The notes beneath the pieces are model-generated. The model saw only the letters and a program-made list of their open reading frames with translations. It made no database searches and had not been told where the DNA came from. The translations under genes and the position numbers were made by a program. A stretch of 64,000 nucleotides of DNA from the sequence record PZ452583.1, one strand, 5' to 3'. Numbering within the stretch: the first letter of the stretch is position 1; every line of letters starts with the position of its first letter. Of this stretch, positions 23,220 to 32,328 are shown piece by piece. Source of the DNA: a phage.

Positions 23220-23273
23220 TCCTCATGTTATGTCAGTAAGACTACTATAACACAACACGAGGGACTTGTAAAC
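23220..23273 (-). repeat. 54-bp early promoter cassette, copy A
   Basis: 53 of 54 nt identical to 38546-38599. Confidence 0.8.
23244..23272 (-). promoter_or_regulatory. early promoter (TTTACA-17-TATAGT) within 54-bp repeat copy A
   Basis: T4 early-type GTTTAC -35 and TATAGT -10, followed by SD GAGGAA. Confidence 0.6.
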
Positions 23274-25330
23274 TACATTTTGAACTTTTTAGACATTCCG
23301 TTGATGTTAACCAAAGAAGCTAAGATTTGAGAAACTTCGTTTTCCTCTTCTTTTGATTCTTCTACAAGGAATTGATTAAATCCAGCCATTGGACGAACTT
23401 CACCAGTTTCCATTAGATGGTCGCCATCATATACTGATTCTTCTAATTGTTCAGAAGGAGGAACGATTGTACCTTCGATTAGATACTTGTTATAAGCAGT
23501 TTCTTTCATAAAGTAAGTACTTACTTTATTAATCTTCAGTAAAATTCCACGTGGTAGAATAACTTCAGCTTCTGATGGAAATCCTGATAAATGACCTGGA
23601 ACGATAACTTTTATTCGCTCAGCTCCTTTAATTACCATACCCACGCTAGTTTCAGCATCTTCATTAGCATATGTAGAATGACTACCCATATGCATCAAAT
23701 CTTCTGCATCAACGGAACCTTCTCCTTCGCCAGAAAATACTGCACCGGAATCATCTAGAGCCATATAGTTTTTACCATGCTCACCGAAGATATTTGGTTT
23801 AAGTGATGTCGATACGAAGTTCTTGAAATAGAACATTTTATTTTCAATATTGTGACGCAAAGTTTTAAAGGTAACTTCTTGTCCACGGTAAAGTGTAGTT
23901 CCTGGAGGAAGAACTGAACCTTTAGCGAATGCAGAATCCAGCGTCTCAATATGTTTAATAGCTCGTTCCATATATTCTTCACGGGTAGAATCTGGTTTAC
24001 CCAAAAGGAACGAGTTCATTTCAACATATGAATCTGCGCAATAATCTTCAATTACGTCAGATTCAGCCTGAGTTAATCCTTTTGGAGTTACTTCAGTACT
24101 TGCATATTCATATGCCTGAGCGGCAGATTCATTAATCAATTTATAAATGCCATTCATGACAAATTGAATAATAGCTGTCTTTTCATCTGGCGTAGCTTTA
24201 GAACCTTTAACTAAATCATTGATAATTTTCTTAATAACATCAAAGCTATTAGAAATATTAATGTCAGCAAGATCGCTTAAAATTTTATCAGTTTTATAAT
24301 CAAAGAATTCTTTATTCTTTAAATATTCTTGAGAACCTTGATATGTTATATCGCTCTGCAACTTGATAGATGGATCACGTAAACGCGCATGGGCTAATGC
24401 AATATGATTTCGGAAGTTTTCTAGTTCATAATCGTTAGATTTAAAACGAGAAGCACTTCTCATACCACCGATAGCTCCTTTGCCGAAGTTTGAACCAATC
24501 TGAATAACGCCAGAGTTCATTGGTCCTTCTGCTTTATATACCGGAACTTTGGATTCAAACTCTTGATATTTCTTAGCAGCGAAGCTATCACCCTGAAGTG
24601 AAGCATCAACAGTAGAATATTGAGCTTGTGCTGCTAATCGACGACTAATTTTAGTTTTCTGAATAACAGCTTGGTCCGTGCGCTTATCATTTTCTAAAGC
24701 AATAGAAGCAGCAACTGCGACAGCTTTAGGAACAGCATTACCTGTTTTAACGTCTACATAAACATCACCAACCTTTGATTCAACTTTTGTGAATAACTCA
24801 GTTGAAATAGGAGGTACACCTGGAATGTCTTCTAAATTGGCATTTTTACGGTAAACCATAATATATGCGTACTTTTTATCATAATCCCAGATTTCCTTTA
24901 AAAGAACATATCGACCTGCTCCTTTAGTACGTACTAAACGGTCAGCAATAACTTGCATTTGACGAGCAGCGCCATTTGTTTTACTCTTTAGTACGCGGAA
25001 TAAGCATGCATCAATTTTATACTGTTTCATTGTTTGAAGAGCAGTATCAAAAACAGCATTAATGACGCCAATTGGATTTCCACCCAAGTTTTTAAGCTTA
25101 ACTAATGATAGTTTCTCATTAACACCTATCATTACGATATGCATCATTTTGTCGCCTGGCTTAACGTTTTTATTCGTATCACCGCCAGAGGTGTATGTAC
25201 AAAATCTAAATCCAGGGAGAACGCTTTCTTCACCGGCTTGAATAGCAAAAATTTGTGGTATTTTATGCTTAGGATTTAAGTTAACAACCGGCGCCGAAGC
25301 GCCGTCAAATAATTCTGTAATAAGTTCCAT
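23273..25330 (-). CDS. Alt-like ADP-ribosyltransferase, paralog 1
   Basis: 685-aa ORF; N-terminus MELITELFD...; ART R-S-ExE signature (YRGQ, FVSTSL, EAEVILPRG); paralogous to the adjacent upstream gene. Confidence 0.85.
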   Translation of the reverse strand: MELITELFDGASAPVVNLNPKHKIPQIFAIQAGEESVLPGFRFCTYTSGGDTNKNVKPGDKMMHIVMIGVNEKLSLVKLKNLGGNPIGVINAVFDTALQTMKQYKIDACLFRVLKSKTNGAARQMQVIADRLVRTKGAGRYVLLKEIWDYDKKYAYIMVYRKNANLEDIPGVPPISTELFTKVESKVGDVYVDVKTGNAVPKAVAVAASIALENDKRTDQAVIQKTKISRRLAAQAQYSTVDASLQGDSFAAKKYQEFESKVPVYKAEGPMNSGVIQIGSNFGKGAIGGMRSASRFKSNDYELENFRNHIALAHARLRDPSIKLQSDITYQGSQEYLKNKEFFDYKTDKILSDLADINISNSFDVIKKIINDLVKGSKATPDEKTAIIQFVMNGIYKLINESAAQAYEYASTEVTPKGLTQAESDVIEDYCADSYVEMNSFLLGKPDSTREEYMERAIKHIETLDSAFAKGSVLPPGTTLYRGQEVTFKTLRHNIENKMFYFKNFVSTSLKPNIFGEHGKNYMALDDSGAVFSGEGEGSVDAEDLMHMGSHSTYANEDAETSVGMVIKGAERIKVIVPGHLSGFPSEAEVILPRGILLKINKVSTYFMKETAYNKYLIEGTIVPPSEQLEESVYDGDHLMETGEVRPMAGFNQFLVEESKEEENEVSQILASLVNINGMSKKFKM

Positions 25331-25333
25331 GAT

Positions 25334-27427
25334 TTATCCTTGAACGAACTTGTAAGGCATGTTTGTAATATCTATGCAAGACGCAATAATTCCAAGAGAT
25401 GATTCTACTTTCTGTTTAACATTTGATGAAACAAATGATGCAAAGTCAACTCTGTCTTCTATTTCAATATCACCTGTCATTGCAACCAATTCACCAGTTT
25501 CCATTAAATGGTCTCCGTCATAGATTACCGATTCGGTGAGTTCTTCGGTGGTCATAACTTCAGCTTGAATGAGTTTTGTATTATTAGACGTGGTTCCGTC
25601 ATTATTAGAAGCATCAGTTATTTTATTAACTTTGACCATCAATCCGCGCGGTAGAATAACTTCAGCTTCTGTTGCTATTCCGAGACTTCCTGGATATACA
25701 ACATTAACTTTATGAGCTCCATCAATTGCCCATCCTATTTGAACTTTAACGTATTCAGGATTTTCTTTATACGCTCTTATTTCGTTTGGATTAATAGTTA
25801 TTCCTTCTTCATTTTTATCAACTGTCAATTCATTACGAGTTTCTGGTTCTAAAAGACCAATACCAGCATGTGTAATTCCAAAACGTCCAAAAATGATAGG
25901 AGTTAAAGAAGTAGATACAAAATTTCTGAAATAGAACACTTTATTTTTAACTAGTGCTTCGTATATAGGAGCAGTCATACTTTGAGCACGATAAACTGTG
26001 ATGCCTTCCGGTATGCGGTCACCATTTTCAAAAGCTGAATCTAAGTTATTTATAGCAGATTCAATTTCTTTTTCACTCATTACATCATATCGTTCTGGAT
26101 TGTAACGACCTAAAAGAAGATTATTAATGTCAGTATATCCTGAACCGCAATATTCTCTAATGCCACGCTTTTGTGATGGAGTATATTTAGAACCATCGCG
26201 GGCAATAGTAATATCAATCATTGGACCAGCACCAATTCCAGAAAAACTGTAAATCATTCGTTTGAGGAATTTAGTTTTTGCTACGTTCCAGGAATTTTTA
26301 GTTATTTCTTCCCAGACTTCATCTGGTTGTCCTTTACGATTTTTATTATGATTAGCAAGCCATTTATCTTTATAATCTTCAAAGAATTGATTTACAGCTG
26401 CTGCGTATTTCTCTAAACATTTTATTGAAGTAGTTGGTTCATTTTTAATTGCATTAAAAATTACTTCTTTAATTTTTTCTGAAACTTCACCGACTTGACT
26501 CATTGGAAAGAATTTATAATCATAGTGAAGTTCATCTGCCGTTCCTTCAGCAATAATTTTTGCTGCCTTTGTTTTAGAAGCTAATGAATTAATTCCAATT
26601 TTCATTTCTTCTGCTTCGGGAATTAAAGGTGCAGTAGCTGGTTTATTAAAATTAGCTGCTGTAGATTCATACTTCTGGAATAATTCACTTTCAAATCTAG
26701 AAGATTCCAATGATTGACTTTGCGCAATTGCTCTACGGGAAATTTTAACTTTAACGATTACAGCTTGGTCAGAACGTTTATCATTTTCTTGCGCAATAGA
26801 TGCTGCAATTGCCTCATTTTTAGTTACTTGGGCTCCAGTATCTTTATTGATATAAACATCGCCGACTTTCGATTCAACTTTAGTAAAGAGCTCGGTACTA
26901 ATTTCCGGAACTCCTGGAATGTCTTCTAGTGATACATTTTTGCGATGTATAAGAATATATGCATACTTTTTATCATAATCCCAGAGTTCCTTAAGAAGGA
27001 CGTATCTACCACCTGAACGACTACGGATAAGTCTATCAGCAATAACTTGAATTTGTCGAGCTTGGCCAGCAGTTTTAGACTTAAGAATACGAAGCATACA
27101 AGCATCAATTTTATATTGACGCATTGTTTGCATTGCAACAGTAAAAACTGAATTGATATAATTAATCGGGCTTGGACCAAGACCTTTTAATTTAGCAATT
27201 GAACCTTTAGCAGTTAATGTAAAAGGAACAATATGCATCATTTTATCGCCCATCTTTAAATCGCGATTAGTATCACCTCCAGATGTATAGGTACATAAAC
27301 GAAAGCCTGGTTGTTCAATTGCATCATCAACATGAACTGAAAAAATTTGTGGTATTTTCTTCTTTGGATTTAAGTTTGTAATCGGAAGAGTAGTATCTTC
27401 GTCAAATAATTCTGTAATGAGTTCCAT
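25334..27427 (-). CDS. alt: Alt ADP-ribosyltransferase (internal head protein), paralog 2
   Basis: 697-698 aa (two adjacent ATGs at 27430 and 27427); ART signature YRAQ, FVSTSL, EAEVILPRG; late promoter TATAAATA upstream. Confidence 0.88.
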   Translation of the reverse strand: MELITELFDEDTTLPITNLNPKKKIPQIFSVHVDDAIEQPGFRLCTYTSGGDTNRDLKMGDKMMHIVPFTLTAKGSIAKLKGLGPSPINYINSVFTVAMQTMRQYKIDACMLRILKSKTAGQARQIQVIADRLIRSRSGGRYVLLKELWDYDKKYAYILIHRKNVSLEDIPGVPEISTELFTKVESKVGDVYINKDTGAQVTKNEAIAASIAQENDKRSDQAVIVKVKISRRAIAQSQSLESSRFESELFQKYESTAANFNKPATAPLIPEAEEMKIGINSLASKTKAAKIIAEGTADELHYDYKFFPMSQVGEVSEKIKEVIFNAIKNEPTTSIKCLEKYAAAVNQFFEDYKDKWLANHNKNRKGQPDEVWEEITKNSWNVAKTKFLKRMIYSFSGIGAGPMIDITIARDGSKYTPSQKRGIREYCGSGYTDINNLLLGRYNPERYDVMSEKEIESAINNLDSAFENGDRIPEGITVYRAQSMTAPIYEALVKNKVFYFRNFVSTSLTPIIFGRFGITHAGIGLLEPETRNELTVDKNEEGITINPNEIRAYKENPEYVKVQIGWAIDGAHKVNVVYPGSLGIATEAEVILPRGLMVKVNKITDASNNDGTTSNNTKLIQAEVMTTEELTESVIYDGDHLMETGELVAMTGDIEIEDRVDFASFVSSNVKQKVESSLGIIASCIDITNMPYKFVQG

Positions 27428-27450
27428 CATATCCTCTCTAGTGTTTATTC

Positions 27451-29128: not shown

Positions 29129-29394
29129 TGTTCATCCTTTAGAGTTTGGTTTACAGCTCTATTATAAATCAATTCATCATTAAGCTCAGTCAAAGACCTG
29201 TGGTACGTGGTTCTAACTTTATTTCCTTGCATCCAGTGCTTGACGTAAATGAAACCTTGCTCTACACATTTTTTAAAAATTCGTTCGTCTTTTTGAGCTC
29301 GGAATTCTGGATTGCATCTAAAAAATTGATTTACGTGACCGTAATCACGTGTAGTATTACCTTCATTTTCATAAATAGTGTGAACGACAAACAT
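29125..29394 (-). CDS. hypothetical protein (30.1 position)
   Basis: 89-aa ORF, coupled. Confidence 0.55.
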   Translation of the reverse strand: MFVVHTIYENEGNTTRDYGHVNQFFRCNPEFRAQKDERIFKKCVEQGFIYVKHWMQGNKVRTTYHRSLTELNDELIYNRAVNQTLKDEQ

Positions 29395-30233
29395 TAGAAT
29401 GCTCCTTGGAAAATATTATCACCACTAGTAGGTCTATTATACAAATACTCTATGCCACCAGGTTTAATATAGTTCCATGTCTGAAACGGATGTGTCTGAT
29501 ATGGATGATATAGATGATTATAAGGATTAAATCCAGGAGTTCTCCAGGTAGTATTCCAAGGAAAAGAATCATTTTTAATCATCTTTTCAATTACATCTTT
29601 TATAACTTTTTCACTATCAAAACTTTCTTTATTTTCCTTCGATGGAAAAAGCTTATTCTCTACATCATTCCATGTATAAACTCGCTGAGCGGTTTTTGGA
29701 ATACTGTCACGCTCCCCTCGAGCCATCCAATAAACAGGAACATTTAATATTTCACTCGCGTGATCGCAGTGGTGAGCGAGATCGTCAATATAACAAATTA
29801 CGTTATATTTCTCTTTTGCCTTTTTGAACAACTCTTCTTTTGAAGAATCATGACCACACATCAATACTTCTGAGAAAGCACCAGGAAAAAGAGCATTCAA
29901 ATTAAATTGACGATTCAGCAGAGCGTCAATAGAATCACCCAATGCTGTAACAGCTACAAAATTATAATCTTCTTTTAATTTGTTAATTACACACAGGGCA
30001 TCTTTATATGGAGACAAGTAACGAATAAAATCTGAACGATTATACTTTTCGATTAATTTAACACCGAGTTCTTCATCGCAATTAAAGAGCTTACCAGGAG
30101 AAATAAATTTTTCGTCCTGAATCATTTTTAAAATATGTTCTAATGGAAGATTATATTTTTGGGCAAAATAAGGAAGGCCTGATTGCCAGCTTAAACATAC
30201 CCCGTCAATATCAGTCAAAATAGTAGGCTTCAT
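29394..30233 (-). CDS. hypothetical protein, possible HAD-like hydrolase (30.2 position)
   Basis: 279-aa ORF; N-terminal ILTDIDGV resembles HAD motif I. Confidence 0.6.
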   Translation of the reverse strand: MKPTILTDIDGVCLSWQSGLPYFAQKYNLPLEHILKMIQDEKFISPGKLFNCDEELGVKLIEKYNRSDFIRYLSPYKDALCVINKLKEDYNFVAVTALGDSIDALLNRQFNLNALFPGAFSEVLMCGHDSSKEELFKKAKEKYNVICYIDDLAHHCDHASEILNVPVYWMARGERDSIPKTAQRVYTWNDVENKLFPSKENKESFDSEKVIKDVIEKMIKNDSFPWNTTWRTPGFNPYNHLYHPYQTHPFQTWNYIKPGGIEYLYNRPTSGDNIFQGAF

Positions 30234-30694
30234 AGAGAGTCTCTTAATAGGTTTAACACATCAATAAATTCAGCTTCGGTTAGTATTGTATCATCTTTTG
30301 TTAGACCACTAGCCATGCTGTGCTTCAAAACTTTTCCTTTCGAGGCTTGTAATGCATCACGAAAACCCTTGTTTTGAATCGCTGCTTCAAAATATGCATT
30401 TGTGTATAATTCTTTCCACGCTGGGGAGTATCTTGAAAACGGAACTCCAAGCCAGAAGAGGGTCCCACGGTCCTGAGCTCTAGCATAAGACCTTCCAGTT
30501 TGTTGGGCGGCAAGCCCAGATAACCCAAATACACGACGTTGTTGTTCAACATTTTTCACCTTGCATCCTTGGAGGAATCCTTCGAGACCTCCAAATTGAA
30601 TACCATCCATGACGAAAGGCCATTGGGCGAAATTACTTAATGCGCATGATGGCCATCTAAAATTGCTTCTAATCTCTAACTCAGACATTTTCAA
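30230..30694 (-). CDS. NADAR (YbiA/DUF1768-like) domain protein (30.3 position)
   Basis: 154-aa ORF with the pattern SNFA.WP...DG..F...E...Q..K characteristic of the YbiA/NADAR family. Confidence 0.6.
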   Translation of the reverse strand: MKMSELEIRSNFRWPSCALSNFAQWPFVMDGIQFGGLEGFLQGCKVKNVEQQRRVFGLSGLAAQQTGRSYARAQDRGTLFWLGVPFSRYSPAWKELYTNAYFEAAIQNKGFRDALQASKGKVLKHSMASGLTKDDTILTEAEFIDVLNLLRDSL

Positions 30695-30887
30695 TACTTA
30701 TAATTTCAACATCAGCCCAATGACCATAGCAAGGAAGACGAAATTCAACTGGCCAGTTAGGGTCCTTTTCTAATATAATAGACTTAACTTGTGGTTCTTC
30801 ATGTTCATCAGTATATGGATTTTTATCTGTTACTTTATATGTGACCTTAATGTACTGAATTCCAAAAATCTTATTAATTATATTCAT
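30681..30887 (-). CDS. hypothetical protein
   Basis: 68-aa ORF in the coupled 30.x array. Confidence 0.5.
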   Translation of the reverse strand: MNIINKIFGIQYIKVTYKVTDKNPYTDEHEEPQVKSIILEKDPNWPVEFRLPCYGHWADVEIISIENV

Positions 30888-32245: not shown

Positions 32246-32274
32246 ATACTATCACAAAGGAACCATACTGTAAA
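32246..32274 (-). promoter_or_regulatory. early promoter (TTTACA-17-TAGTAT)
   Basis: minus strand; flanked by inverted repeat CCTTTGT / ACAAAGG; SD AAGGAG downstream. Confidence 0.45.
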
Positions 32275-32289
32275 CAACTTTGTGCAATC

Positions 32290-32323
32290 TTTGGAAAATA
32301 AAAAAGGACTCCCGAAGGAGTCC
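32290..32323 (-). terminator. rho-independent terminator after the small basic ORF
   Basis: GGACTCC-TTCG-GGAGTCC then TTTTTTATTTT on minus strand. Confidence 0.65.
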
Positions 32324-32328
32324 TCAAC

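Follow-up and report, generated by a model that had tools for sequence, protein, structure and literature searches.

Locus and reading frame

At 30230..30688 on the minus strand of the window, a 64,000-nucleotide (nt) stretch of phage DNA (sequence record PZ452583.1), lies gene 30.3 (adfN), which is predicted to encode a phage-type NADAR ADP-ribosyl-guanine glycohydrolase of 152 amino acids (aa), gp30.3 or AdfN, followed by a TGA stop. A first-pass annotation, made from the sequence alone, had described at this place an open reading frame (ORF) of 154 aa for a NADAR (YbiA-like) protein within the array of 30.x genes. The frame is real: it occupies 30230..30694 when counted from a TTG codon, runs on the minus strand, which had been left unstated, and its translation contains the quoted signature SNFAQWPF..DGIQF..LEGFLQGCK. 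The extent of 154 aa does not stand. Translation almost certainly begins at the ATG at 30688, two codons downstream of the TTG, given that T4 annotates gene 30.3 at 459 nt, that close homologs measure 152 aa, and that only this start matches the published residue numbers E36 and K43. The two surplus codons, TTG AAA (30689..30694, minus strand, with the TTG at 30692-30694), are probably untranslated, as T4 and the close homologs begin at the ATG.

Pfam hmmscan matched gp30.3 to PF08010 (Phage_30_3) with an E-value of 4.9e-70 and 234.2 bits against a gathering cutoff of 36, the alignment spanning profile positions 1-138 of 138. Furthermore, of about 50,700 phage records on deposit, 1,511 contained a homolog by tblastn, and in 1,505 of these the match extended over 80% or more of the protein. 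The frame is thus not a chance ORF. Many Tequatrovirus genomes match the surrounding 3.5 kb at 96-98% identity, and the region keeps the T4 gene order of ligase (30), 30.1, 30.2, 30.3, 30.4, 30.5, 30.6, 30.7 and 30.8, all on the minus strand; the gene lies, as the first-pass annotation had it, in the 30.x array, here the 30.9→30 array adjoining DNA ligase. The protein shares 149 of its 152 residues (98%) with T4 gp30.3, the differences being V53I, T64A and M125I. Judged by its sequence, the gene is gene 30.3 (adfN) of a T4-like phage (Tequatrovirus), the ortholog of T4 adfN.

Placement in the NADAR superfamily

Direct scans with gp30.3 gave little hint of its superfamily. No match to PF08719 (NADAR) was returned by hmmscan at E≤1, the other match being an insignificant one to DUF724; an NCBIfam scan found no match; a phmmer search of PDB sequences yielded only an insignificant one; and the matching PHROG 652 is labelled 'unknown function'. 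The PF08719 miss reflects model boundaries and not missing homology, since Pfam has a family of its own for the phage clade. Taken alone, the direct scans would have led to a wrongful dismissal of the NADAR assignment.

When 1.84 billion representative proteins were searched with a profile, 1,448 family clusters at 50% identity were obtained, 148 of which were used to build a family profile for hhalign. The first-pass annotation had held that a profile search failing to place the protein in the NADAR family would speak against it; although PF08719 misses gp30.3, the sensitive family profile does reach E. coli YbiA, with an hhalign probability of 95% and an E-value of 3.9e-8 over 134 columns. 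YbiA was also its sole match among PDB sequences in hmmsearch (E=0.0011), and 21 of the 148 family relatives match PF08719 directly (best 1.2e-6). The crystallised NADARs 8bau and 8bat were not reached by the profile among PDB sequences at E≤10, so that the link of gp30.3 to them rests on fold. In the structural comparison with NADARs that the first-pass annotation had proposed, gp30.3 showed a YbiA-like alpha+beta fold, consisting of a helical core with small flanking beta hairpins. The claimed membership of the YbiA/DUF1768 (NADAR) family therefore holds at the level of the superfamily.

Three NADAR branches have been distinguished in the literature by the residue on the last strand, which is Glu in the YbiA type, Asp in the DarT1-associated BC4488/DarG1 type and His in phage gp30.3. 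By its last-strand His, gp30.3 is assigned to the phage branch of the superfamily, and in the strict sense to neither the YbiA nor the DarG1 family. In published trees the gp30.3 proteins are closest to the DarG1-type NADARs.

The family varies in architecture. In roughly half of the 147 closest cluster representatives the protein is extended at the N or C terminus by 40 aa or more, and these extensions include LRR_5, ASCH, DUF6939, NT5C and GDSL-lipase domains. A tandem duplication, in which a partial domain precedes a near-complete one, was seen in P0023, P0025, P0026, P0037 and P0110 (about 290 aa) and in P0024 (480 aa); this duplication in some gp30.3-family proteins accounts for the 296 positions of the PHROG 652 profile.

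Active-site residues and C-terminal helix

The codons of the conserved N-terminal NADAR motif, S18-N19-F20 (30629..30637, minus strand), pair with the SNF of YbiA in hhalign. Across 176 aligned family domains, Ser is found in 153, Asn in 157 and Phe in 122. The active-site helix is encoded at 30560..30583 (minus strand) with the pattern E36...Q40...K43 (EGFLQGCK), which hhalign pairs with the E..Q..K of YbiA. Loss of these Glu, Gln and Lys positions, another finding that the first-pass annotation would have counted against itself, was looked for in the alignment, and E36, Q40 and K43 are all kept; position 36 is Glu in 163 and position 43 Lys in 157 of the 176 domains. Given the pairing with YbiA and the shared 7-residue spacing from Glu to Lys, E36 and K43 correspond to E43 (distal ribose) and K50 (adenine) of PnNADAR. 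H123 (30320..30322, minus strand) is the residue on the last strand by which the phage gp30.3 NADARs are defined. In the hhalign alignment with YbiA it occupies the place of the YbiA-family Glu (the equivalent of PnNADAR E125), which is thus absent from gp30.3, and it is His in 162 of the 176 domains.

The C-terminal region separates the window allele from that of RB69. RB69 is sensitive to DarTG1, as a single T insertion shortens its gp30.3 by 15 residues, and C-terminal truncation of AdfN reduces activity (PMC11825919). Accordingly, the annotation of RB69 gene 30.3 spans 414 nt (137 aa). When the DNA of the window phage was aligned with that of T4 and RB69, only RB69 had the extra T, by which a TGA comes to follow residue 137. 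Over residues 1-137 the RB69 protein is 94% identical to the window allele. Codons 138-152 (30233..30277, minus strand), encoding the C-terminal helix that RB69 lacks (residues 138-151 in the AF2 model), are intact in the window. Since its adfN is full length and keeps this helix, the window phage is predicted to be DarTG1-resistant.

Function and proposed mechanism

With recombinant chimeras between these phages and RB69, Johannesman et al. (Nat Commun 2025; PMC11825919) traced the resistance of T2 and T4 against DarTG1 to the 3' portion of gene 30.3, and they renamed T4 30.3 adfN, for anti-DarT factor NADAR. They found adfN necessary and sufficient against DarTG1: T4 or T2 deleted for adfN forms no plaques on DarTG1 hosts, and RB69 is fully rescued when adfN is supplied ectopically. 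Moreover, E36A and K43A reduce counter-defence by T4 AdfN, and the purified protein strips ADP-ribose from DarT1-modified DNA in vitro, whereas the E36A form fails (PMC11825919). In a separate study, T4 gp30.3 hydrolysed guanosine-ADP-ribose on DNA but not thymidine-ADP-ribose, and according to a 2026 study it leaves cytidine-ADP-ribose in place. A transposon screen of the whole T4 genome, described in the HIDEN-SEQ preprint, found 30.3 non-essential on K-12 and its insertions completely depleted on DarTG1, with a log2 fold change (log2FC) of -7.25 and an adjusted p reported as 0. The suggestion of the first-pass annotation that the protein acts in ADP-ribosyl-guanine DNA repair or anti-defence is therefore correct, having been published for the 98%-identical T4 protein. 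One in vitro construct is listed as 'T4 phage NADAR (gp30.3; residues 1-208)' (PMC11125620), whereas T4 gp30.3 has 152 aa; this numbering may be a tag-inclusive count or refer to another source protein.

Taken together, we consider it highly probable that the window gene is adfN, an orphan antitoxin-like NADAR of the phage branch which reverses the DNA modification made by DarT1. Orthology, fold, conserved residues, intactness and gene arrangement were established in this analysis; enzymatic activity and the counter-defence phenotype come from the literature on the T4 protein, and we infer that the window allele behaves likewise. In the proposed mechanism, the DarT1 toxin of the host would ADP-ribosylate guanine at N2 in replicating phage DNA, and AdfN would cut the N-glycosidic bond linking guanine and the distal ribose. 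ADP-ribose would be released and the DNA restored to normal, such that replication could proceed and the DarTG1 defence would fail. The putative active site comprises E36 and K43 on the central helix, with His123 on the last strand where cellular NADARs have Glu or Asp. Full activity would need the C-terminal helix (residues 138-152), and adfN would be expressed within the tightly packed 30.6→30 gene chain.

Several points weigh against this assignment or complicate it. Besides the missing direct match to PF08719, the M125I substitution of this allele lies two residues from H123, and no His123 mutant bearing on catalysis was found in the literature. In uninfected E. coli, moreover, T4 AdfN does not neutralise DarT1, and it rescues T5 and Bas25 only weakly, which suggests a T-even factor. 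A free enzyme that simply cleans DNA would thus be an incomplete picture, as there is a T-even-specific requirement.

Other substrates have to be weighed as well. Iyer et al. (2022), who considered how phage NADAR, Macro, SLOG and Nudix genes are distributed and in what context they occur, proposed soluble targets for most phage NADARs, and gp30.3 might accordingly degrade mainly soluble ADP-ribose-derived immune signals or toxins of host TIR, sirtuin and ADP-ribosyltransferase (ART) systems instead of DNA adducts. The 1,448 clusters and the fusions with ASCH, LRR_5, GDSL and NT5C domains do suggest more than one substrate across the family. For the T4 ortholog, however, DNA de-ADP-ribosylation and a DarTG1-specific phenotype were shown directly, no soluble substrate was found reported in the literature, and Iyer et al. 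themselves conceded DNA adducts as a possible target of some phage NADARs, which leaves a mainly soluble substrate improbable.

An ADP-ribose source within the phage itself is suggested by two tandem, full-length Alt-type ART genes (23273..25330 and 25334..27430, minus strand; 685 and 698 aa, both matching PF03496), which lie about 3 kb from adfN in the same orientation. Since NADARs also remove ADP-ribosyl-guanine from RNA in vitro, gp30.3 could be thought to balance the phage enzymes (Alt with its paralog, ModA and ModB) by erasing off-target ADP-ribosylation or RNAylation. Yet Alt-type enzymes modify protein side chains, whereas NADARs act specifically on the N-glycosidic linkage of guanine; where DarTG1 is absent adfN is dispensable, and the effect of alt insertions does not depend on the DarTG1 condition (log2FC -0.01), so we find such a role even harder to credit than soluble targets. 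The same screen bears on a housekeeping role, in which gp30.3 would be a YbiA-type metabolic N-glycosidase destroying reactive riboflavin-pathway intermediates as damage control during infection: T4 30.3 is dispensable on plain K-12 and essential on DarTG1 hosts. The last-strand Glu that defines the YbiA family is His in gp30.3, the published trees place gp30.3 nearest the DarG1 type, and no riboflavin genes were seen in the region examined. We give this possibility the least credence of all.

The function of adfN is hence already known, and there is nothing unusual about the window copy. Its recognition has annotation value, as nearly every record listed by tblastn still reads 'hypothetical protein' though the function has been on record since 2024-2025. 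From an intact adfN, resistance to hosts that carry DarTG1 can be predicted, a help when the host range of therapy or typing phages is judged.

Gene arrangement and neighbours of adfN

From 30.6 to 30, consecutive genes overlap start to stop by 1, 4, 8, 4, 1 and 4 nt. The 8-nt overlap (30681..30688, minus strand) joins the end of gene 30.4 to the start of adfN, and in an ATGA (30230..30233, minus strand) the TGA stop of adfN overlaps the ATG start of gene 30.2. Within 22 nt upstream of the adfN ATG no Shine-Dalgarno-like motif was found, which makes adfN the sole such gene among the seven scanned. In view of the 8-nt overlap and the missing motif, adfN is probably translated by coupling to 30.4. 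Masking of the adfN start by RNA structure was rejected, the fold being no better than that of shuffled sequence (z=0.35).

Gene 30.4 (30681..30887, minus strand; 68 aa) lies directly upstream of adfN and shares its transcription and translation unit. Its product belongs to PHROG 2042, of 'unknown function', and has no Pfam match; in the loci examined, the gene is confined to T4/RB69-like phages, where it always abuts adfN, and is absent from distant loci. Of all genes in the genome, exactly two are significant in the HIDEN-SEQ table for DarTG1, namely adfN and 30.4; for 30.4 the log2FC is -1.79 and the adjusted p 0.014. The main text of the preprint is silent on 30.4, and its authors argue that polar effects are not widespread. 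Because adfN overlaps 30.4 and has no ribosome-binding motif of its own, a polar effect would suffice to explain the 30.4 signal. We consider such an effect, through lost coupling to adfN, more likely than a helper role. That 30.4 and adfN form a counter-defence module of two proteins, in which gp30.4 would help, stabilise or target AdfN, appears unlikely; if it were true, gp30.4 could explain the restriction of T4-type AdfN to T-even infections. The question of why T4-type AdfN works fully only in T-even infection is in any case narrowed to a testable point, gene 30.4, by the gene arrangement together with the published transposon data.

In one related contig (L006, 3809..4005; IMG/VR UViG_2974742932_000001), 30.4 is seemingly split over two frames, possibly by a frameshift, and the adjacent adfN is intact at 97% identity. 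If real, this split would offer a naturally occurring case in which to see whether adfN needs 30.4 for its expression or function.

Genes 30.9 and 30.8 are separated by a strong terminator-like hairpin, GAGGACTCC-TTCG-GGAGTCCTT with a T run behind it (32304..32325, minus strand). After it, directly upstream of 30.8, stands a promoter-like site, TTTACA-17-TAGTAT with a TG extension (32246..32274, minus strand). The two could mark the start of the adfN-containing transcription unit; in the promoter and terminator scan as a whole, sites were not enriched over shuffled sequence, and no promoter is claimed here.

Within adfN, an out-of-frame internal ORF of 75 aa that is annotated in T4 as 30.3' (30325..30552, minus strand) is open in the window. 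It was rejected as a conserved gene: its ATG is missing in one related contig (L003) and an internal stop interrupts it in another (L013), both with an intact adfN frame. From these alignments 30.3' looks like a by-product of the overlap.

Downstream, gene 30.2 (29394..30233, minus strand; 279 aa) is translationally coupled to adfN and encodes a HAD-superfamily phosphatase that keeps all four HAD phosphatase motifs. Its model shows a confident HAD fold over about residues 1-195, then a disordered variable tail. In the distant relative P0033 the gp30.3 domain is fused to an NT5C nucleotidase, as in 2 of 148 relatives overall. Given the coupling, the HAD phosphatase assignment and this fusion, gp30.2 was considered as a cofactor of AdfN. 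However, T4 30.2 insertions are neutral on DarTG1 (HIDEN-SEQ log2FC -0.12, p=0.61), gp30.2 does not significantly resemble the fused domains in sequence, and its gene is not found within 4 kb of adfN in 8 of 10 more distant viral loci. The adjacency holds in close T4-like loci and in one at 46% identity, and is rearranged in one more distant locus. We conclude that gp30.2 is not required for DarTG1 counter-defence.

Comparison with known systems

The chromosomal E. coli YbiA (2b3w) is 18% identical to gp30.3 and has a last-strand Glu in place of the His. It differs from AdfN in role and in genomic context, ybiA adjoining dinG on the host chromosome. The DarG1 antitoxin NADARs, represented here by the BC4488 family, Geobacter/Trichlorobacter lovleyi 8bat and the E. 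coli C7 NADAR, work alike, but AdfN has no partner toxin and is in this sense an orphan. No DarT1 toxin gene stands beside adfN, whose flanks are 30.4, of no family, and the phosphatase gene 30.2; the nearest ARTs are the Alt-type (PF03496) enzymes, not DarT. DarG1 antitoxins have a catalytic Asp on the last strand, where AdfN has His123, and an N-terminal extension with an electropositive channel, whereas AdfN is the core domain alone: 124 residues of the 152-aa gp30.3 align to the 219-residue 8bat chain, and the phage NADAR has been described in the literature as core domain only. T4 AdfN is no substitute for DarG1 in uninfected cells.

AdfN-Bas32, AdfN-Bas60 and T4 AdfM (the Tk.4 macrodomain) are, like AdfN, orphan antitoxin-like ADP-ribosylglycohydrolases of phages that counter DarTG. 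The Bas32 and Bas60 proteins belong to other NADAR branches and act without T-even infection; AdfM is a macrodomain acting on the thymidine modification of DarTG2 and is encoded outside the window's region.

T4 has one alt and, where the window phage has its second copy, the decayed remnants alt.-1 and alt.-2; RB69 has one alt. The window phage thus retains an intact alt duplicate. At the adfN locus itself, RB69 gp30.3 lacks the terminal helix and the phage is DarTG1-sensitive, whereas the window allele is full length. T4 AdfN has the same length, catalytic residues, C-terminal helix and position between 30.4 and 30.2 as the window gene, and the three substitutions between them are conservative and do not suggest a functional difference.
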